DNA from: Candidatus Latescibacterota bacterium
GTDB lineage: Bacteria; Latescibacterota; UBA2968
DNA: 64,000 nucleotides
Direction of reading: 5' to 3'
Assembly (NCBI GenBank): GCA_965222605.1
Contig: OZ244960.1
Span: forward strand, 3,840,001 to 3,904,000
In this document: positions 2,662-56,708 of the stretch, piece by piece
Layout: each line of letters opens with the position of its first letter
Position numbering within the stretch: position 1 is the stretch's first letter
Position numbers and translations under genes: made by a program
Notes under the pieces: model-generated
What the model was told of the DNA's origin: nothing
What the model saw: only the letters and a program-made list of their open reading frames with translations
Database searches by the model: none

Positions 2662-5574
2662 TTAGTGGTTCAAGCTTATACGAAATGCAATACTGCGCGG
2701 GATAGGCACTTCTACGAAGTCAAATCCGCGGACTGCGGTACGCTGTCCGGCGATGTTGGTTTCCGGATCATAACCGCTGTAGTTGTCTATGGAAAACAAA
2801 TTGCGGGCAATCAGGCTCAATTGAATGCTGCTCAATCCCGAAAGTTGGGGCTGCCAGCGATAAGACGCGGACAGTTCGCGCAATTTTACAAAGGATCCAT
2901 CTTCGATCCAGTGTTCAAAAATTCGGAAGACCCGCGAATTATAGCCAGCGGGGAGTTCGCCATTTAATTCTCGTTCGTAGTCTGTTAAAACGCCGAATGC
3001 GCTCAATGCGGCCAGGCGTCTGGTAAAATTGAACACATCGCCACCTATGATGGCGTCCCATTGCGCGCGAAATGACCAGTTTTGCCCCACTTCGATCTGA
3101 TTGATCAATGAAGCGGTAAAGTCCGGGTTGGGATCTCCAATAATTTTGCGATCGGCCGCTTGAATCGGGAGATTGTTTTCATCGCGTGCGATATTGCCCT
3201 GGGCATCGCGTTCAAAAGCCGTACTGAAGAAAACCCCAAGGGGTTCGCCGTTGGTGGCCGAGACCTGGGAAAACGAATTTGGGATGATCAATCGCCCGCC
3301 CTCAATGCCATTGACTTTGTTTTTATTGGTCGAATACGTGAAGGTCGATTCCCAGCGGAGATTGGGGCGTGCAAGTGGAATCGCGCGCACGAGGAGTTCC
3401 AACCCGGTATTGTCCATGGTACCGACATTTTGCAAGGCCCGCGAATGACCTGTGGAGGGGGATAATGTGCGGAACAGCAACAAGTCGTCGATGTGTTGAT
3501 CGTAATAGGTCAGTTCTACGCCCAGGCGATTGGACAGGAGGCTAAAGTCTGCACCTACTTCAACTTCCCTCTGTCTTTCGGGTTTGATCGTTCCGCCGAG
3601 TTGCGTGCTGGGCACCAGGCCGGGGTTGCCGTCATAAGAAGATGCATTGTAATTGGTCAAGCGGTCATACGGTCCAATAGCTGTTTGACCCCCTGAAGTG
3701 CCTATGGAGGCTCGCAATTTGAAGTCTGGAAAGATGTTTTGAAGTGCGCCATTTTGCCAGAAGCCCGCATCTGAAATGAGGTAGGAGGTACTGGCTTTTG
3801 GATAAAATTGCCAGCGATTATCCACGTCATAGACCGAGGAGGCGTCGATGCGGGCAGCACCTGTGATAAAAAGACGATTGGCGATCCCGAAGGTTTGCTG
3901 GATAAATCCGCCATAAATGGTCTTTTTGCTTCTAAATTCGCCTGCGACGACGTTTGCACCGCTCGATACGACTCTTGAAACGGGACTCAGATCTTTGGCT
4001 TCTGCGCTGAAGTTTTCCCCTTTTTCGTATTGTAGGGTTCCGCCAATTCGCGTGGTCGATTGCACCTGAGGGAATATGTGCCGCTGGTATCTGAGGTTGA
4101 TGTCGTTGTTGAGTTGCAAAAAATCGAATACGGCTCTTCGAGAAAAGCCATTTGTCAGACCCGGCGCAGAGGTGCCGGCGGGTATAAATGCGATGGCCGT
4201 CTGGTCGTAGGCATCGACGCCCAATGTATAGTCGATGCTCAATCCAGATAGTGGGGTTGCATTTAGCTGTGCGTTTCCAATATAGCGCGTGATTTCTTGT
4301 GTGAAATCATATTGATCAATGACTTCTAAGGGATTGGCGAGAACGCCGTCGCTCGGATAAACACCGGTCGCGGGGTCGGGTGTGAGATTATAGGTATTGG
4401 GGCCAAAAATAAAACCTGTCAGCGCGCCGTAGTTCGAATTTAACCCGCCGTTGGGTATGTCATTGCTTTTGCTAAATACGAAATTTCCGCCTACAGACAA
4501 GGTTGCCCAGTTCGACAACTCCTGGTCGATGCGCGTTCGGCCACTGATCCGCCGAAACAATGTGTTTTCAACCACGCCTTGATCGGCGAGATAGGATCCA
4601 GAGGCAAAATAACGGGTATTCCCAGACCCTCCCGAAACCGATGCATAGTGCTCCATTCCCGTGGCGCGTCTAAAGATGAAGTCCTGATGGTCAAAGCGTT
4701 GCACATCGGAGCCATCGGAATTTTTGTTTCCCCTATTGTCAACGGTTGCCCGATTTACAGGCAGTGTTTTGCGTATTTTTGACGTTGAAAGACCATAAGT
4801 ATAGGTTATGCGAGGCTTGCCCTGTGCGCCGCGTTTTGTAAATATTTGCACGACACCGTTGTTTGCACGCGATCCGTAAAGGGCTGCTGCTGCTGCGCCT
4901 TTTACGATTTCAATGCGTTCTACATCGTTTAGATTGAGATCGATGAGTCGGTTTTGCGCCCCGCCGCCAAGTCGGATGAGTTCGGGGGAATCGTTGTTCA
5001 CAATGACACCATCCACCAAATAGAGGGGGTCGGCATCGCCCAGGACGGTACTGGTTCCGCGCAAGCGGATGGTTACTCCGCCAGCTGGATTGCCCGAATT
5101 TTGCTGAATGAGAGCACCGGCTAATTTACCGGTCAACGCTTTGTCGAGGGATGTGGCGCCAGTCGATTCCAATTGGCGAATGTTCAGGGTGGATATGGCA
5201 TTTCCCAGTTGCTTTTTGCTGGCTGCTACGGAAAGGCCGGTGACGACGATTTCATCGAATTGCAAGGCATCTATGCTAAGTTGAAAAGAGACTTCCGCAA
5301 GTCCGTTGTTTTGACGAATGGTTTGTCTGGCGGATTTGTAACCGACAAAACGCGCTTCGATAGTGGTTTCCGCTTCTGGCTCTGGCAAATATAGCGCGAA
5401 ATTGCCCTGAGCATCCGTGCTGGTACCAGCTGTTGTTCCAACGATAACGATATTGGCACTGGGCAGGCCCTCGCCTCGCTCGTCGGTGACTGTGCCTTTA
5501 ATGGTCAGTTGGGCAAAGGCCGAAATGGGGATGCTGAGAAAGAGACAAGCGGCAAAAAATAATCGAGATAACAT
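2662..5574 (-). CDS. SusC/RagA family TonB-dependent receptor
   Basis: Signal peptide, carboxypeptidase-regulatory-like N domain, plug motifs DPLYLVDG and KGAAAAALYGSRANNGVV, YSGYDPE near the C-terminus. Confidence 0.95.
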   Translation of the reverse strand: MLSRLFFAACLFLSIPISAFAQLTIKGTVTDERGEGLPSANIVIVGTTAGTSTDAQGNFALYLPEPEAETTIEARFVGYKSARQTIRQNNGLAEVSFQLSIDALQFDEIVVTGLSVAASKKQLGNAISTLNIRQLESTGATSLDKALTGKLAGALIQQNSGNPAGGVTIRLRGTSTVLGDADPLYLVDGVIVNNDSPELIRLGGGAQNRLIDLNLNDVERIEIVKGAAAAALYGSRANNGVVQIFTKRGAQGKPRITYTYGLSTSKIRKTLPVNRATVDNRGNKNSDGSDVQRFDHQDFIFRRATGMEHYASVSGGSGNTRYFASGSYLADQGVVENTLFRRISGRTRIDQELSNWATLSVGGNFVFSKSNDIPNGGLNSNYGALTGFIFGPNTYNLTPDPATGVYPSDGVLANPLEVIDQYDFTQEITRYIGNAQLNATPLSGLSIDYTLGVDAYDQTAIAFIPAGTSAPGLTNGFSRRAVFDFLQLNNDINLRYQRHIFPQVQSTTRIGGTLQYEKGENFSAEAKDLSPVSRVVSSGANVVAGEFRSKKTIYGGFIQQTFGIANRLFITGAARIDASSVYDVDNRWQFYPKASTSYLISDAGFWQNGALQNIFPDFKLRASIGTSGGQTAIGPYDRLTNYNASSYDGNPGLVPSTQLGGTIKPERQREVEVGADFSLLSNRLGVELTYYDQHIDDLLLFRTLSPSTGHSRALQNVGTMDNTGLELLVRAIPLARPNLRWESTFTYSTNKNKVNGIEGGRLIIPNSFSQVSATNGEPLGVFFSTAFERDAQGNIARDENNLPIQAADRKIIGDPNPDFTASLINQIEVGQNWSFRAQWDAIIGGDVFNFTRRLAALSAFGVLTDYERELNGELPAGYNSRVFRIFEHWIEDGSFVKLRELSASYRWQPQLSGLSSIQLSLIARNLFSIDNYSGYDPETNIAGQRTAVRGFDFVEVPIPRSIAFRISLNH

Positions 5575-49924: not shown

Positions 49925-50125
49925 TGGATTACTCCTTTTTGTACGGCGCGGTAACGGTTTACGATATTAAACATCGTGAAGGGCAAATGGGTTCCTTTAT
50001 ATGAACATTGATTGACTTTCTGAGGTCAGTCCCTTAAATTTTCTTCTCAGAAGAAATACAGTCTCACGCTTGCCGAAATGATGAAAGAAAAGTAAATTTT
50101 GCAGCAGAAACGAAGGAGGTTCACC

Positions 50126-50368
50126 GTGGCTGAAACAATGCTCGAAGAAGATGGTCACCTGCTTTTGCCGCAAGAAATAAGGGAGCATCTACATCTCCAT
50201 CCAGGAGACAGATTGAATATTGTTATTCAAAACAATGGAGATGTGGTTATAAAATCAAATCTGCGAGATGTTCGGGATTTGAAAGGTATTTTGCCCCCTC
50301 CCTCTAAGCCGGTCTCTATTGAGGATATGAAACGGGCTATTCGTTTGCGAGGTAGTAAAAATCAATGA
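50126..50368 (+). CDS. AbrB/MazE-family antitoxin
   Basis: GTG after GGAGG; G.LLLPQEIRE.L.L.PGD; coupled to a PIN gene. Confidence 0.85.
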   Translation: MAETMLEEDGHLLLPQEIREHLHLHPGDRLNIVIQNNGDVVIKSNLRDVRDLKGILPPPSKPVSIEDMKRAIRLRGSKNQ

Positions 50369-50751
50369 TGGGCTTGGATACCAATGTACTCGTTCGTTAT
50401 CTTACGCAAGATGATCCTGAACAATCGAGAATCGCAACACGCGAAATTGAGACAGATAACGTCTCCTTTTTCATCACATCCATGGGCATGTGCGAACTTG
50501 TTTGGGTGCTGGAAACGGCATATAATTATGACAGATCAACGATTTCAGACACACTTAAAAAAATACTTCAAACACGTCAATTCGCTTTTGACGATAGAGC
50601 ATTGATGGAGAAAGCACTGGCTGATTATAAAAAAAATAAAGAGGGTTTTTCGGATTATCTACTTGGTCATGAAAGCAAACAAGCTGGATGTGATAAAACA
50701 CTTACATTTGATCGTGCGCTGAAAAATCACGCGCTATTTCAAACCCTTTGA
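50365..50751 (+). CDS. VapC/PIN-domain toxin
   Basis: GLDTNVLVRYL, E.VWVL, FSD, TFD. Confidence 0.9.
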   Translation: MMGLDTNVLVRYLTQDDPEQSRIATREIETDNVSFFITSMGMCELVWVLETAYNYDRSTISDTLKKILQTRQFAFDDRALMEKALADYKKNKEGFSDYLLGHESKQAGCDKTLTFDRALKNHALFQTL

Positions 50752-50767
50752 AAATCGGGAGTTTGTT

Positions 50768-51031
50768 GTGTCACTCATCACAGTAACCCTTGATACCGAT
50801 CTGGCAGTTCTGTTGCAGGAACTTAATCAGCCTATTCAAGAAACGGCTCGTGAGATGATTATTCTGGAGCTATATCGTCGAGGAAGTATATCCAGTGGCA
50901 AAGCGGCTCAATTATTGGACATGTCACGCTGGGAATTTATTCAGCATGCATCTCAATTGGGCATTGCTTTTTTTGATCTCAATGCGGAGGAATGGAAGCG
51001 CGAACGACTTCAGGCTGATGAGACTGAGTAA
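50768..51031 (+). CDS. UPF0175 family protein (putative antitoxin), orphan
   Basis: LY..G.ISSGKAAQLL.MSRWEF. Confidence 0.85.
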   Translation: MSLITVTLDTDLAVLLQELNQPIQETAREMIILELYRRGSISSGKAAQLLDMSRWEFIQHASQLGIAFFDLNAEEWKRERLQADETE

Positions 51032-51136
51032 TTGATATTACGCACGGATGCATGTCACTGTTGGAATAAGATGGGATATTTTGTATATTTAAGAGGTCAA
51101 AAAGCCTGGTTTAATTATTAAAGGCACAATATTGAG

Positions 51137-51415
51137 ATGAATCTACACACCAAACATCCACTCGTCAAAGCCCTGGTTGCCGTATTGCTCGTTGGCGCGT
51201 TTGCCTTTGGATTTGGGCATGTGGTTGACCATGTTGAGCATGGTATCCATTGTGTTGTTTGCGATTGGGTTTATAGCTTTTTGGGTCTTATCAGTGCCAT
51301 AGTTGTTTTTGGTGCGTTATACGCCTGTTGTTTTTTCGCTTCGCCGAACGCCACATTAGTATCCCACCAGTTTTTCCTCTCGCCTCAGGGCCGATCCCCT
51401 CCGGTAGTCTCCTGA
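51137..51415 (+). CDS. Small membrane leader protein with His/CxxC and C-terminal RSPP (DUF2946/CutF/CruR-like putative arrest peptide)
   Basis: N-terminal hydrophobic segment, HVVDHVEHGIHCVVC, second hydrophobic segment, ...PQGRSPPVVS*. Confidence 0.7.
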   Translation: MNLHTKHPLVKALVAVLLVGAFAFGFGHVVDHVEHGIHCVVCDWVYSFLGLISAIVVFGALYACCFFASPNATLVSHQFFLSPQGRSPPVVS

Positions 51416-51554
51416 ATCTCGTAAGACAAACTTTTGCATTATCTTTTCATTTTTTGTATTTTTACGCCTTTTTTGCGAGCGCGGGCAGTGTGTCTTCCTC
51501 TGTGTGCTCTGCCCGTGCGGGCTGTACAGGTGATTTTACCATTCAGGAGACTGT
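51404..51554 (+). promoter_or_regulatory. Anti-SD / SD sequestering long-range stem
   Basis: AGTCTCCTGAAT (51406-51417) is the exact reverse complement of ATTCAGGAGACT (51541-51552), which contains the SD for ATG 51558. Confidence 0.75.
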
Positions 51555-51557
51555 ATC

Positions 51558-52049
51558 ATGTTTTTTGCAAGAAAAACGTTTCAACGCACTTTTGCCGTTG
51601 TGGCAGTTCTGACTCTGTTTGTGATTGGTTGTGGCAGCGAAGATCCCATGTCTGAACACGAAGAACATTTCGAACCCGAGGGTCTGGTTCTCATAGATTC
51701 GGGCAATCGGTTTTTCCGCTATTTTCAAGGACAGATTGATGCCAGTGGTGGTCGGGTAGGCGAACTCGAAGTTCCCAATGGTGGACTTACCGCTCAATGG
51801 AGCATTCGGTTCCTCGATGAAGATGGCGACGAAATTGATCCACCGGATGAGCCAGATGACAAATTTACCTCGACCATTGCCGATCCCACTGTTGTCGAAG
51901 TTTATCAGGCTCCCGCAGATGTGGGAAAATTTGAATTCCAGCTGCGCGGCCTCAAGGTAGGCGAAACCACTATTGTCCTCGAAGTCACGCACGACGATCA
52001 TATAGATTTTCGCACGGTCCCCATTCCCGTGCGTGTCGTAGATCAGTAA
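51558..52049 (+). CDS. Lipoprotein, putative metal-binding partner of the TonB receptor
   Basis: Lipobox VIGC, EHEEHFEPEG, HDDHIDF. Confidence 0.7.
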   Translation: MFFARKTFQRTFAVVAVLTLFVIGCGSEDPMSEHEEHFEPEGLVLIDSGNRFFRYFQGQIDASGGRVGELEVPNGGLTAQWSIRFLDEDGDEIDPPDEPDDKFTSTIADPTVVEVYQAPADVGKFEFQLRGLKVGETTIVLEVTHDDHIDFRTVPIPVRVVDQ

Positions 52050-52056
52050 CTGTCTT

Positions 52057-52096
52057 GCCCTCACCCGGTTTTCCCAGGATAGAGTGAGGGCTTTTT
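52057..52096 (+). terminator. Intercistronic hairpin with U-tract
   Basis: GCCCTCAC...GTGAGGGC TTTTT. Confidence 0.5.
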
Positions 52097-52114
52097 CTCA
52101 GATAGAGATACGTT

Positions 52115-54316
52115 TTGAAATTCACAGCTTCTATTCTGGTTGTTGTGTTCTGTTTTTCCGCGATCAGCGCGTCGGATGAGACGCGTTTGCTCGAGGGATA
52201 TGTTTTTGATAACAAGACTCAACGCGCAATTGGCAATGTCGATATCAAACTCGATGATGGCGCAGCGGGCACGATAACCGATGAACAGGGCCGTTTTGTC
52301 CTGCGTCTATCGGAGGGCGTTCATCGCCTGTCTTTTTTTCGTCTCGGCTATCGGACAGCGCGTCGAGAAGTGAAGGTCTCAGGCTCGAAACTTCCCATTC
52401 TGTACGTCGAAATGGTCGCCCAGGAAATCCAGATTGATACCATTAACGTGTTGGGAAAAGATGCGGAGACTCGCTTTGAAGAATTGTACGAAGCCACTGG
52501 CGTGCTTTCTGGAGATGAACTTCAGAAGAAATACAGCCTCACGCTTGCCGAGACGATGAAAAACGAGATTGGCGTTGCCATCCGCAGCATGGGCCCTGCA
52601 CCTGCTCGACCAGTTATACGCGGCCTCAGTGGCGACCGCGTGCAGATCAATATAGACGGTATCGAGACCCGTGATCTGTCTGCCACTTCTGCTGATCACG
52701 CTGTTACTCTCGAACCTTTTAATTCAGAACGCCTCGAAATTATCCGGGGGCCGCGCACGCTGCTTCACACGGCATCGGCTATTGGCGGGGTTATCAATGT
52801 CGTGAAACAGAAAATTCCCGAGGAGCATCCGCAGAGCATTTTTGGCAGTGTTGGTGCTTATGGAGAGACGGTCAATCGGGGATATCTCTCAGCCGCTGGT
52901 ATTACAGTGCCCGTGGGTCCGCTCGCGCTTTATGCCGAGACCACGTACCGCAATACCCGGGATGTGCAAACCCCCATTGGCAGGCTCGCCAATACACCTA
53001 TTGACACGCGCACGCATACGCTCGGTCTGTCATATCCCACTGATCGGGGGTATGTCGGTGCCTCTTTTGATCAGTTCGATACCCAATACGGCATTCCCGG
53101 CGGATTTATTGGCGGGCATCCCAATGGTGTAGATCTGGATATTGAGCGCCGCGTGTTTGATGGCAAAGCGGCCTACCATTTTGATCGCCAGGTGCTCAGT
53201 AGCGTAGAGATGGATTTTACCAGGACCTTCTATCATCACTTCGAGTTCGAATCCAGCGGCAGTATTGGGTCCGAGTTTTTGTTCCACGACTACGGCGGCG
53301 ATCTCAAATTGCATTTGAACACACAAGGCCAGACGCGAAATACCGTTCTCGCTCTCGGCTTTGGCCATCACAATCTCAAATTGGGCGCGTTTGTTTTTAC
53401 GCCGCCCACGCGAGAGCAAAACGCCTCCTTAGGTCTTTACCACGAATTTACCTATCGCGACATCGAATTTCAGGCCTCTGCTCGTTATACGTATGCCGAC
53501 TTTGATCCGCGTCCCAGAACAAGGACGACCGCGGATCTCGATGTAGATCGCACCTTTCACGCATGGTCTGCGGCGATCAGTCCGCTTGTGTCCATTACCG
53601 ACCGGGTAACCGGCGGTTTGAACCTTAGCCGATCCCAGCGCGTGCCCACGATTGAAGAGCTATACAACGATGGGCCGCATTTAGCTGCGTACACTTTTGA
53701 GGTGGGCAATGTCGATCTCGAGGCCGAAACGAGTCTGGGTTTCGAGGTTTTTTTTCACTATTTGCAACCAGGTCTCAATTTTGTTTTGAGCGGATATTGG
53801 AACGAGTTTGATATTTATATTGCTCCGCGCAATACCGGAGAGATCAATTTCGCCCAACTTCTGCCGATCTACGCTTCCGATGGTGTTGCCGCGCGATTTT
53901 TGGGTGTGGAGATGCATCTGGGGTGGCGTTTGAATACCCGTCTGAATCTGGAATTTAACGGCAGTTACGTGCGCGGCGAGAATAGGGATGAGGATTTGCC
54001 CTTGCCCGAAATGCCGCCGCTCAAGTTTGTTGGTAGCGCAACCTATGAGCACCCCTGGCTTACTGTTGGCGGGACTGCGGAATTTGTCGCAGGACAGGAT
54101 CGCGTGGATATATTCGAAGAGCCTACGGATGGCTATGCTGTTTTCAGTGTCTATGCCCAGCGCGACATTAACACCGACCATACCCGCCATAGTATTATTC
54201 TCTCTTTGGACAATCTTTTCAATACGGAATACCGCAACCATCTCTCGCGCATTCGATCCGTGATGCCCGAAACAGGGCGGAGTATTAAAGCGCATTACAA
54301 GATGTCTTTCTTTTAA
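52115..54316 (+). CDS. TonB-dependent receptor, ZnuD-like (metal uptake)
   Basis: GP..ARPVIRGL.G.RV, S.TSADHAV, YHHFE, ELY.DGPHLA, YRNHLSR. Confidence 0.85.
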   Translation: MKFTASILVVVFCFSAISASDETRLLEGYVFDNKTQRAIGNVDIKLDDGAAGTITDEQGRFVLRLSEGVHRLSFFRLGYRTARREVKVSGSKLPILYVEMVAQEIQIDTINVLGKDAETRFEELYEATGVLSGDELQKKYSLTLAETMKNEIGVAIRSMGPAPARPVIRGLSGDRVQINIDGIETRDLSATSADHAVTLEPFNSERLEIIRGPRTLLHTASAIGGVINVVKQKIPEEHPQSIFGSVGAYGETVNRGYLSAAGITVPVGPLALYAETTYRNTRDVQTPIGRLANTPIDTRTHTLGLSYPTDRGYVGASFDQFDTQYGIPGGFIGGHPNGVDLDIERRVFDGKAAYHFDRQVLSSVEMDFTRTFYHHFEFESSGSIGSEFLFHDYGGDLKLHLNTQGQTRNTVLALGFGHHNLKLGAFVFTPPTREQNASLGLYHEFTYRDIEFQASARYTYADFDPRPRTRTTADLDVDRTFHAWSAAISPLVSITDRVTGGLNLSRSQRVPTIEELYNDGPHLAAYTFEVGNVDLEAETSLGFEVFFHYLQPGLNFVLSGYWNEFDIYIAPRNTGEINFAQLLPIYASDGVAARFLGVEMHLGWRLNTRLNLEFNGSYVRGENRDEDLPLPEMPPLKFVGSATYEHPWLTVGGTAEFVAGQDRVDIFEEPTDGYAVFSVYAQRDINTDHTRHSIILSLDNLFNTEYRNHLSRIRSVMPETGRSIKAHYKMSFF

Positions 54317-54463: not shown

Positions 54464-54703
54464 ATGGCAACCGATTCCATGTTGGCAGAAATTTTGAATA
54501 CAACGCGTTCTCTGTCAGTTGAGGAGAAAGTTCAATTGATTCGGGGTATGACCGATCAAGTCGAACAAGATCTTAAAGGTATAAAGAAGACTCAAAAGAG
54601 ATCTCTACGAGGTGTCTGGAAAGGACTGGACATCACAGATAGAGAGATTCGTCAAAACCGCGAGGAAATGTGGGGCAATTTCCCTCGAGAGGTTTCCCAA
54701 TGA
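54464..54703 (+). CDS. Putative antitoxin
   Basis: LS.EEK..LI, RSLRGVWKG..IT..EI...R.EMW; ATGA-coupled to a PIN gene. Confidence 0.7.
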   Translation: MATDSMLAEILNTTRSLSVEEKVQLIRGMTDQVEQDLKGIKKTQKRSLRGVWKGLDITDREIRQNREEMWGNFPREVSQ

Positions 54704-55101
54704 CTCGTGCAGTCACCGATACGCATGGTTTGATCTGGTATTTGGAGGGTAGCGTTCTTTTGGGATCCAAGGCCAGCCAAATTTTTGATGCCTGTGAACA
54801 AGGCGACGCTTTCATTTATATACCCACGATCTGTTTGGTCGAGATTCTTTATTTACAAGAAAAAGGTCGTATTCCACTTGAAAACCAGCAACTACTTCAA
54901 GATAATCTAAAAGCAGGTGAGAGCAATTTGGCTTTGGTAGATCTAACCCAGGATATTGTTCACAAAATAGCCGAGATACCCCGAACAATAGTGCCTGATA
55001 TGCCTGACCGCATCATTGCGGGTACTGCGCTGTATATGGAATTGCCGCTGATAAGTAAAGATGAAAAAATTCAGCAATCACAAGTAGCAACAATCTGGTA
55101 A
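54700..55101 (+). CDS. VapC/PIN-domain toxin
   Basis: VTDTHGLIWY, E..YL, DMPDRIIA.TA, LISKD. Confidence 0.9.
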   Translation: MTRAVTDTHGLIWYLEGSVLLGSKASQIFDACEQGDAFIYIPTICLVEILYLQEKGRIPLENQQLLQDNLKAGESNLALVDLTQDIVHKIAEIPRTIVPDMPDRIIAGTALYMELPLISKDEKIQQSQVATIW

Positions 55102-55900: not shown

Positions 55901-56708
55901 ATGCACGGAGATCACAGTGAAAGAGTCAGACTTAAGGAAGCTACAACCATTATCATTGCAGGTGGGGTCACAAACGGCATACTGGGAGCCGTAAAAATCG
56001 TCCTCGGTAGTTTTACAGGTTACCTCCCATTGATTGCTTCAGGGGTCCACTCGCTGTCGGACATTGTATCCGATGTCGTGGCTTGGGTCGCCGTGCTGAT
56101 GGGATCGCAGTCTAAGAAACAGCATGAAGATTTAAGGTTTCATTATGGTCGCCGTCGTATCGAAACTCTCCTGTCGCTTTTTGCAGCTTTTCTTCTGGCG
56201 TTCGTGAGTGTAGAACTGATCCTTGATGCTTTTGGCTATCACGGCCACGGTCATGGGATGTCCATAAATATTGTGAAAAAAGCGGAGATGCCTGTTACTA
56301 AAGACGATCATGGTCATGAACTTCCCGTAGAAACGCCTGATGCGAAAGAGGATCACGGTCACGAGCATCCCACAACGTCTGATACCAAAGAGGCCCACGG
56401 TCATGAACTTCCCGTAGAAACGCCTGATGCAAAAGAGGCCCACGGTCACGAGCATCCCATAGGCCATGATGAAGATGGCTCAAGTTATTTGTTCCTCATC
56501 AGTGTGGTCATCATCATTTCAATAATTGCCAAGGAAATATTTTTTCGCATTACTCGGCGAACCGGATATCACGATAGCAGAAGGGCATGATATCGCTAAA
56601 CAGGTCCGTGAGAATATTATGGATCAAGTGCCCAATGTGATTGATGTGACCACCCTGTTGACGCCTAAAGGTGAATACGTGCGGCAGTTTCTGGATTCGG
56701 ATGCATAA
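55901..56708 (+). pseudogene. Cation diffusion facilitator (CDF) with a His-rich loop, broken by an internal deletion/frameshift
   Basis: HSLSD, FHYG.RRIE in frame to 56590; the C-terminal dimerisation-domain remnant PDITIAEGHDIA...V.DV lies in another frame (to 56708); TM5-6 are absent. Confidence 0.75.
56300..56460 (+). repeat. Coding tandem repeat with an 87-bp period (four HGHE units)
   Basis: HGHELPVETPDAKE(D/A)HGHEHP occurs twice; cttcccgtagaaacgcctgatgc is repeated 87 nt apart. Confidence 0.9.

Follow-up and report, generated by a model that had tools for sequence, protein, structure and literature searches.

To our knowledge, leaders that sense a metal through translational arrest have so far been demonstrated only for copper, the examples being CruR, CutF and CopL (by genetics), all of them DUF2946 proteins from Pseudomonadota. 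Here we consider a candidate relative from an uncultured phylum: a 92-residue open reading frame (ORF) in a 64,000-nucleotide stretch of a Candidatus Latescibacterota genome (contig OZ244960.1, positions 3,840,001 to 3,904,000; hereafter the window), which stands ahead of a lipoprotein gene and a TonB-dependent receptor gene. By analogy with the described systems, it is probably a CruR/CutF-type arrest leader that acts on the lipoprotein-TonB receptor operon by a CutF-like unmasking of a Shine-Dalgarno (SD) sequence; within this proposal we infer that the ribosome stalls and is released, which metal acts, the sign of the response and co-transcription of leader and operon.

CruR (Bp2923) of Bordetella pertussis is encoded at the head of a TonB-dependent transporter operon and belongs to a family defined by CXXC and RAPP motifs, which in DUF2946 leaders lie 45 residues apart, give or take one or two (PMC9426467). 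RAPP mutants of CruR lose expression and CXXC mutants lose copper control, the protein acting through Rho-dependent termination (PMC9426467). In vitro, the arrested ribosome holds the two Pro codons in its P and A sites, and small exported proteins ending in RAPP or RGPP are reported to be enriched upstream of TonB receptor genes across Gram-negative phyla (PMC12992588). The genome scan described in that source took RGPP and RAPP only, so that the family considered here lies outside its net. The variant RSPP is described there as partially permissive in ApdA/ApdP, as recovered in random arrest screens and as under-represented in proteomes (PMC12992588). For CutF, also a DUF2946 protein, the stall is reported to let the ribosome unfold a stem-loop that shields the SD of cutO (PMC9973294; bioRxiv 10.1101/2025.02.05.636593), and its authors raise the possibility that the metal sensed by some CutF-like proteins is not copper (PMC9973294).

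The leader peptide in the window reads MNLHTKHPLVK..HVVDHVEHGIHCVVC..GRSPPVVS. From the N terminus it comprises MNLHTKHPLVK, a hydrophobic stretch, GHVVDHVEHGIHCVVCDW, a second hydrophobic stretch and the C-terminal SHQFFLSPQGRSPPVVS. A reading made earlier from the sequence alone (the sequence-only reading) had described the hydrophobic N terminus, the CxxC/His loop, the second hydrophobic segment and the GRSPPVVS end, all of which we find as described. Counting codons from 51137 also places R86-S87-P88-P89 where that reading had put them, with CVVC at 51251-51262, V90-V91-S92 at 51404-51412 and the stop codon TGA at 51413-51415. The N terminus has a basic n-region followed by 16 hydrophobic residues and, in the family consensus, the string ..GAFALAFGH.., in which AFALA-FGH is similar to an AxA site; from the sequence, residues 12-27 are likely to be an export signal or signal anchor. 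Across the family the second segment keeps its hydrophobicity in the distant alignment while its sequence varies. A pattern search of the host genome for other arrest-type leaders gave 70 raw matches, among which only the ORF at 51137-51415 has a convincing hydrophobic N terminus.

The leader is conserved within its phylum. A word-indexed protein search returned 19 homologues of 90-94 amino acids with 65-90% identity to it, and all 17 genome loci found with the near-homologue alignment belong to metagenome-assembled genomes of Latescibacterota. When one genome per species of the phylum was searched with a profile, family members were present in 62 of 168 genomes. Within the window's genus they occur in 20 of 20 others, often at two to three copies per genome (the window's own genome has one). 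A profile search of 1.84 billion cluster representatives gave 19 matches, which extend the family to relatives of 22-36% identity. With a four-member sub-alignment (A5) no locus was obtained among genome contigs, a metagenome scan for leader loci yielded one locus only (L083), and the 10 clusters of distant members whose names were looked up are all singletons, either unnamed or with plainly unrelated automatic names. The fetched loci supplied 60 distinct leader instances, which come mostly from few genera and are hence not independent.

What survives in the peptide is narrow and specific. Alignment A2 of distant members, with a mean column identity of 29%, has only C39 and C42 as invariant and only H28, R86, P88 and P89 as near-invariant positions; both cysteines are present in all 20 rows of alignments A1 and A2 alike, and H28 varies little or not at all. 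In the 29 near relatives compared, R86, P88, P89, C39, C42, H28, H32 and H35 never change while their codons vary, R86, P88 and P89 using two to three codons each. Invariant residues written in variable codons indicate that selection acts on the peptide, and the leader ORF is a real, conserved protein-coding gene. The layout CxxC, 42-45 residues, R(S/A)PP, 1-5 residues and stop is found in 37 of 39 sequences (the window protein and P0001-P0038), the exceptions being P0013, with SSPP, and P0037, which has no such motif. Orthologs had been proposed in the sequence-only reading as the place to look for conservation of CxxC and R(S/A/G)PP, and these counts bear it out. In the window the spacing is 43 residues and three residues follow R86-P89. 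Its motif has Ser at the second position; RAPP occurs in 5 of the 39 proteins and at many distant loci.

The same signature ties the leader to DUF2946. Matches to the Pfam model PF11162 below its cut-off of 23.7 bits were obtained for 7 of 10 distant members tested (10.8-19.5 bits), the region from CxxC to the end aligning with profile positions 53, 54 or 59 to 117 of 117. A same-genus paralog, in which SRAPPVVF in place of GRSPPVVS is the only notable difference, reaches 22.5 bits over positions 47-117. A language-model search ranked a 'putative DUF2946 family protein' cluster at the top (0.93, 168 shared features) and gave 0.90 to a cluster in which 54% of the members have PF11162. Together, the consistent sub-threshold matches and these ranks lead us to name the leader DUF2946-like, a divergent branch below the score for formal Pfam membership. 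CruR and CutF had been cited in the sequence-only reading as parallels. The likeness holds and goes beyond analogy, as the leader itself has the published DUF2946 spacing and distance to the stop; judged by its sequence, it is a divergent relative of the CruR/CutF leaders and not an independent invention.

The 3′ end of the leader is complementary to the SD of the lipoprotein gene. A repeat finder returns the inverted repeat 51406-51417 (AGTCTCCTGAAT) / 51541-51552 (ATTCAGGAGACT), 12 nt long, 100% complementary and with 123 nt between its arms, just as the sequence-only reading had it, and two wobble pairs, U 51405 with G 51553 and G 51404 with U 51554, extend the helix. The enclosed GGAG sits 8 nt ahead of the ATG at 51558. 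The host 16S rRNA ends in ..GGATCACCTCCTT.. (given also as GGAUCACCUCCUU), so that SD pairing is available to its ribosomes and this SD is usable. Of 1000 dinucleotide-preserving shuffles of 51100-51700, 7 contained a perfect inverted repeat of at least 12 nt. When the 201-nt stretch 51380-51580 is folded, the long-range helix forms the closing stem, and the fold reaches -65.5 kcal/mol (z -4.46), a stability matched by 0 of 200 shuffles. Nested within it is the internal stem that had been noted as shortening the loop: its 10-nt arms, 51479-51488 and 51509-51518, are 90% complementary and it folds alone at -25.2 kcal/mol (z -3.37). This inner hairpin is present in many near relatives, and missing or different in L009, L013, L014 and L015-L017. 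If 51404-51413 are left out and 51414-51560 is folded alone, the SD is unpaired in the centroid structure. A further hairpin at 51552-51583 (AUGUUUUUUGCAAGAAAAACGU), seen both in the repeat list and in the 51380-51580 fold, lies over the lipoprotein start codon and first codons; the conserved MFFxRK codons give rise to it, and it may help to mask initiation further.

In near relatives the helix is kept. The alignment A3 comprises 27 sequences from leader to start codon, in which the 14 pairs of the helix give 378 cells. Standard pairs fill 93.1% of these, against 38.1-57.5% when the 3′ arm is slid by one to three columns. Three cells at two pairs are compensatory: G-C to A-U in L016, which has a TAA stop and UAGGAG, A-U to G-C in L041 and A-U to U-A in L042b. 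Seventeen more have C changed to U in the leader arm with a G-U pair retained, including a Ser-to-Phe change of the last codon. The duplex energy of tail against SD has z <= -2 in 25 of 27 near loci, and minimum-free-energy folds from leader tail to start join the SD core to that tail at 25 of 28 near loci, or at 31 of 42 when all loci are counted. In genus g5 (L045, L058) the SD pairs in a different register with the Arg-Ser-Pro codons instead (GUUCUCC with GGAGAAC), and this register lies within the footprint of a ribosome arrested on the motif.

These features suggest a mechanism of the following kind, in outline the one put forward in the sequence-only reading and the best supported of those considered. 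The nascent chain would present an export signal and then a His/CxxC metal site. By extrapolation from the CruR toeprint (PMC12992588), the paused ribosome would have Pro88 (51398-51400) in its P site and Pro89 in its A site. It would then cover roughly 51383-51413, holding mRNA for about 15 nt past 51398 (to about 51412-51413), and this footprint would take in the CUCC at 51409-51412, otherwise the partner of the GGAG of the SD. The four remaining pairs, 51414-51417, should be unable to close a 123-nt loop, so the long-range helix would be blocked, the SD free and the lipoprotein-TonB receptor operon translated. Once the arrest is released, termination at the TGA would let the ribosome leave, the helix re-form and the SD be hidden. 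The trigger of release would most likely be metal bound by the exposed His/CxxC loop, or else a pull on the chain as it inserts into the membrane, as has been suggested for CruR. Since the regulated genes serve uptake, the switch would logically respond to sufficient metal by ending the stall and turning the operon off. A ribosome that simply terminates would melt the helix only briefly; what the arrest would contribute is dwell time. RSPP is a plausible core for such an arrest, given the reports on this variant cited above (PMC12992588). As for the related motifs, within host ORFs of at least 200 residues (crudely called) RGPP is found 3 times against 26.1 expected (0.12), RAGP 10 against 43.7 (0.23) and RAPP 8 against 28.3 (0.28), a strong depletion that agrees with the proteome-wide avoidance reported in PMC12992588.

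Several results weigh against this proposal. In the same host ORFs RSPP itself is only mildly depleted (13 observed against 19.3 expected, ratio 0.67), so that by itself RSPP may stall ribosomes weakly. Covariation, too, is thin: the observed percentage of paired cells is equalled in 3 of 500 shuffles, the covariation score in 14 of 500 and the number of double-change pairs in 116 of 500, and the sequences are also closely related to one another. Two near loci fail in the duplex comparison, L008 at 4001 (z -0.37) and L013 (z +0.12), the latter with an uncompensated TAA stop, and the metagenome locus L083 keeps an 8-bp core with two uncompensated mismatches. Among 14 distant loci only 4 have z <= -2 and 6 have SD-tail pairing in the minimum-free-energy fold; in the RAPP-type clade, whose spacers measure 287-511 nt, tail-SD pairing is mostly no better than in shuffles. 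Paralogs in L005 and L007 (leader at 4001), which stand ahead of an ABC gene, have neither SD nor helix. The helix as a feature of the whole family was accordingly rejected, and masking of the SD by the leader's own 3′ end is a solution of the window's clade. Of the ortholog check that the sequence-only reading had suggested for the anti-SD/SD pair, the part that concerns near relatives stands, with some compensation, and universality falls, the pair being absent or insignificant in some paralogs and in most loci of the distant clade. On the protein side, the window protein has no match to PF11162 at E up to 1, PF11162 exceeds its cut-off in 0 of 168 genomes of the phylum, and a second word-indexed search with the wide profile A2 returned 26 proteins, none with PF11162. 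Four metatranscriptome runs from sponge libraries, compared with 50900-52500, yielded short contigs inside the leader (51163-51377, 215 nt, identical), the lipoprotein gene (51686-51857, 172 nt, and 51686-51882, 197 nt, with 4 and 10 differences) and the receptor gene; no contig bridges the leader-lipoprotein spacer, and contigs of this sort do not reveal where transcripts end. RNA libraries do contain the sequences, though carried-over DNA may be their source, and the contigs neither support nor refute co-transcription.

A last objection leads to a serious rival, translational coupling with no regulated arrest. Since termination at the TGA is enough to open the helix, the RNA part can be accounted for by plain coupling, with no need of arrest: the small ORF would encode a stable membrane protein with two segments that takes part in metal uptake, and the helix would tie translation of lipoprotein and receptor to it. 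Long-range masking of an SD by an upstream coding sequence, relieved by translation, is established for E. coli rpmI-rplT and phage MS2. In the window the stop codon lies inside the anti-SD arm, which a terminating ribosome must therefore melt; near relatives keep the whole 92 residues at the identities given above, and the mild depletion of RSPP fits this account as well. However, beyond near relatives only the His, CxxC and R(S/A)PP residues and their spacing survive, which is the pattern of DUF2946 leaders and not that of a folded functional protein. Furthermore, the motif stays fixed at 1-5 residues from the stop, and the helix-free paralogs of L005 and L007 still keep RSPP, which makes the arrest motif the constant of the family. 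RAPP has been reported as necessary for control in DUF2946 leaders (PMC9426467). With these points on both sides, we regard coupling alone as unlikely, though as the alternative to be taken most seriously.

Arrest might instead control transcription, the stalled ribosome blocking Rho or another terminator in the spacer and the SD helix being secondary. CruR works in this way, with a 162-nt spacer (PMC9426467), and the distant RAPP-type leaders, with their long spacers and mostly insignificant tail-SD pairing, would suit such a scheme. The window is less accommodating: by eye its spacer is U-rich and C-poor and so a poor loading site for Rho, a pattern scan found 0 sites like an intrinsic terminator in it, and a helix of 12-14 bp with compensatory changes would need an explanation of its own. 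We consider control at this level improbable. Least probable of all is that the complementarity is a functionless by-product of a Pro/Ser-rich, CU-rich tail that would pair with any GA-rich SD. Pro codons do yield CCUCC-like words, and other leader segments can rival the tail for the SD window, the internal minimum being -21.6 against an observed -21.4 in L003 and -23.1 against -19.6 in L010. But the pairing of 12-14 bp runs past the SD core into the stop codon and the two nucleotides after it, a repeat of that length is as rare in shuffles as stated above, and a by-product would hardly give the excess of paired over slid cells or the three compensatory cells. The reading we prefer thus remains an arrest leader that unmasks the SD of the operon behind it.

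The window leader heads an operon of metal transport type, with the lipoprotein and the TonB receptor downstream. The same lipoprotein family, with the motif CG(S/K)(D/E)DP..EEH(F/Y)E.EGLV, follows the leader in 42 of the 60 instances (that of L030 is without the lipobox Cys). Other contexts are a MacB-type ABC gene with DUF3299, MerC, or a TonB receptor directly. An apparent lipoprotein match in L050 was discarded, being really a MerC gene: at 980-1987 of that locus a leader ending in GRSPPALS is followed by a gap of about 285 nt and then by a MerC-family gene (E 4.6e-16). The lipoprotein of the window has no Pfam or NCBIfam family match, and its AlphaFold2 (AF2) model has a mean predicted local distance difference test (pLDDT) score of 79.6. 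Foldseek against the PDB gave only generic Ig-like domains (SbsC, Rib, filamin, lambda tail tube), and the fold was dropped as a clue to function. E35, E36, H37, H145, H148 and D150 are kept across one-domain and three-domain forms. The latter, 413-417 residues long and found in other genera (L041, L045, L048, L054-L056, L058-L060 and L066), consist of three tandem copies of the window's Ig-like domain, each with the (E)EF/HxAEG and HxxHxDF motifs.

The receptor and a paralog operon bear on the choice of metal. The receptor's best NCBIfam match is ZnuD (NF038289) at 231.1 bits, far under the cut-off of 950, with TonB-copper at 67 bits, and its closest solved structure is ZnuD (4rdr, E 7.1e-39, against 2.7e-11 for OprC); it is ZnuD-like, not a ZnuD equivalog. 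In the same-genus loci L005 and L007 the first leader heads an ABC operon (ABC_tran; MacB_PCD+FtsX; DUF3299) that resembles ZrgC/ZrgB/ZrgE and is closely followed by a second leader-lipoprotein-receptor module. In Vibrio, the zinc importer ZrgABCDE, which is under Zur control, is described as including an ABC ATPase together with an ABC permease and ZrgE, a DUF3299 protein (PMC9817125). The ZrgC, ZrgB and ZrgE make-up of the paralog operon and the ZnuD-like receptor point to zinc. Genomic context thus makes zinc rather than copper our best guess; within the suggestion of the sequence-only reading, Zn, Ni or Co rather than Cu, it is zinc over copper that gains circumstantial support. The importer operon also encodes ZrgD, a small DUF2607 protein reported as of unknown function (PMC9817125). 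In the language-model search with the window leader a DUF2607 cluster appeared at 0.89, and Pfam scans gave no sequence-level match between the two. This is a lead that ZrgD-like proteins, too, may act as leaders of this type.

Features of the leader and its operon, with positions in the window
Feature	Position	Strand	Remarks
Promoter-like site TTGGAA, 17 nt, TATATT	51061..51089	+	9/12 matches; upstream of leader
Leader ORF, DUF2946-like (CruR/CutF-like)	51137..51415	+	92 aa; homologue and profile searches
First hydrophobic segment, residues 12-27	51170..51217	+	behind K6/K11 n-region; by sequence reading
His-rich loop and CxxC (H28, H32, H35, H38, C39, C42, W44)	51218..51268	+	alignments of near and distant relatives
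Second hydrophobic segment, residues 45-67	51269..51337	+	by sequence reading
RSPP codons CGA TCC CCT CCG, proposed arrest motif	51392..51403	+	three codons ahead of stop
Anti-SD arm: last three codons, TGA and 2 nt beyond	51404..51417	+	12-nt perfect core 51406-51417 and two G-U pairs
Inner hairpin nested in long-range helix	51479..51518	+	arms 51479-51488 / 51509-51518
SD arm of lipoprotein gene, ATTCAGGAGACTGT	51541..51554	+	GGAG at 51546-51549
Lipoprotein, 163 aa, one Ig-like domain, conserved EEHFExEG and HxxHxD	51558..52049	+	alignment, AF2 model, Foldseek
TonB-dependent receptor, N-terminal CarboxypepD_reg domain, ZnuD-like	52115..54316	+	Pfam domains, NCBIfam, structure match

The promoter-like block upstream of the leader is recognisable ahead of several orthologous leaders as well, and a TTGACG..TATATT pair can be seen by eye upstream of distant RAPP-type leaders. 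The spacer between leader and lipoprotein gene, by contrast, has no plus-strand promoter-like site. Rfam has 0 matches to 50900-52200 at E up to 1, and hence no known riboswitch is present. Between the lipoprotein stop and the receptor start, a terminator-like hairpin at 52057-52098 (GCCCUCAC..GUGAGGGC followed by UUUUUCUC; -19.5 kcal/mol, z -1.78), overlooked by the pattern scan owing to its long loop, could lower receptor expression relative to that of the lipoprotein.

In many same-genus genomes the whole leader-lipoprotein-receptor module occurs twice in tandem, and two leaders lie about 3.3 kb apart in L002, L003, L008, L010 and L011. L053 has two leaders in tandem before a TonB receptor, and tandem leaders are also found in L042, L049 and L052. 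Small toxin-antitoxin-like ORF pairs flank the window's operon at 54670-55101, which encodes a PIN-domain protein, and at 50099-51031. Further on, a cation-efflux (CDF) ORF at 55856-56590 matches only profile positions 2-91 of 198, runs on into a repeated His-rich stretch (..KEDHGHEHP.., ..KEAHGHELP..) and then stops; a 60-residue ORF in another frame (56526-56708) overlaps its end, and the CDF gene may be frameshifted or split.

The locus does not introduce a new principle: it combines the target of CruR, a TonB receptor operon, with the output of CutF, the unmasking of an SD. It extends this kind of arrest leader to an uncultured phylum, to a family uncaught by Pfam, to an RSPP variant of the core and, probably, to zinc. 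The claim of a new variant in an under-studied phylum therefore holds as regards divergence, motif, Pfam and phylum, within what is a known kind of leader. Literature searches turned up no description of it, though they did not extend to the supplementary protein lists in three key papers, where family members may already appear. A bolder view, which we offer tentatively and consider less likely than not, is that this would be the first zinc-responsive nascent-chain arrest sensor, in which a natural RSPP peptide would use its His/CxxC loop to sense zinc in the periplasm or near the membrane and the arrested ribosome itself would unmask the operon, the anti-SD being contained in the last three codons and the stop. 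If that were true, and taken with the ZrgD lead, zinc importers of several phyla would be gated by unrecognised leaders that Pfam DUF2946 and RAPP/RGPP scans have missed. The RNA part is unusually simple, a single helix between the stop region of the leader and the next SD, and so offers a compact, testable model of gene switching by a stalled ribosome. A search by motif and spacing (CxxC, 42-45 residues, RxPP, stop) can find such leaders where profile searches fail.

Amongst the described systems, SecM and ApdA/ApdP resemble the proposed leader in that they are small, are exported or sit in the membrane, have their R-x-P-P/G-P core close to the C terminus and are encoded upstream of the gene they control, where a stall exposes a downstream SD; they are, however, monitors of the Sec/YidC machinery and not of metal. 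The likeness to CruR is more extensive and includes the position as first gene of a TonB-dependent transporter operon, the N-terminal export signal, likely in the window leader, the invariant CxxC, the RxPP three residues from the stop and a CxxC-RxPP spacing of 45 residues in CruR against 43 in the window leader (42-45 across the family). The two differ in the core motif, RAPP in CruR and RSPP here, and in length (145 against 92 residues), the window leader having a second hydrophobic segment and being unmatched by the Pfam DUF2946 model. In the CruR operon a copper TonB-dependent transporter precedes a PepSY_TM gene, whereas in the window an Ig-like lipoprotein precedes a ZnuD-like receptor, and the Rho-dependent termination of CruR contrasts with the conserved SD-masking helix of the window's clade. 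With CutF of Rhodobacter capsulatus the leader shares a Cys motif and a Pro-rich C-terminal motif and, if the proposal is right, export of the translated peptide, stalling at that motif and the unfolding by the stalled ribosome of a structure that shields an SD. CutF has CxxxC and a PPP-type motif, and its anti-SD lies in an intergenic stem-loop, whereas in the window the anti-SD is formed by the last three codons and stop of the leader and pairs across 123 nt. Finally, copper switches on the detoxifying oxidase controlled by CutF, whereas the target here is an uptake operon, for which the opposite sign would be expected.

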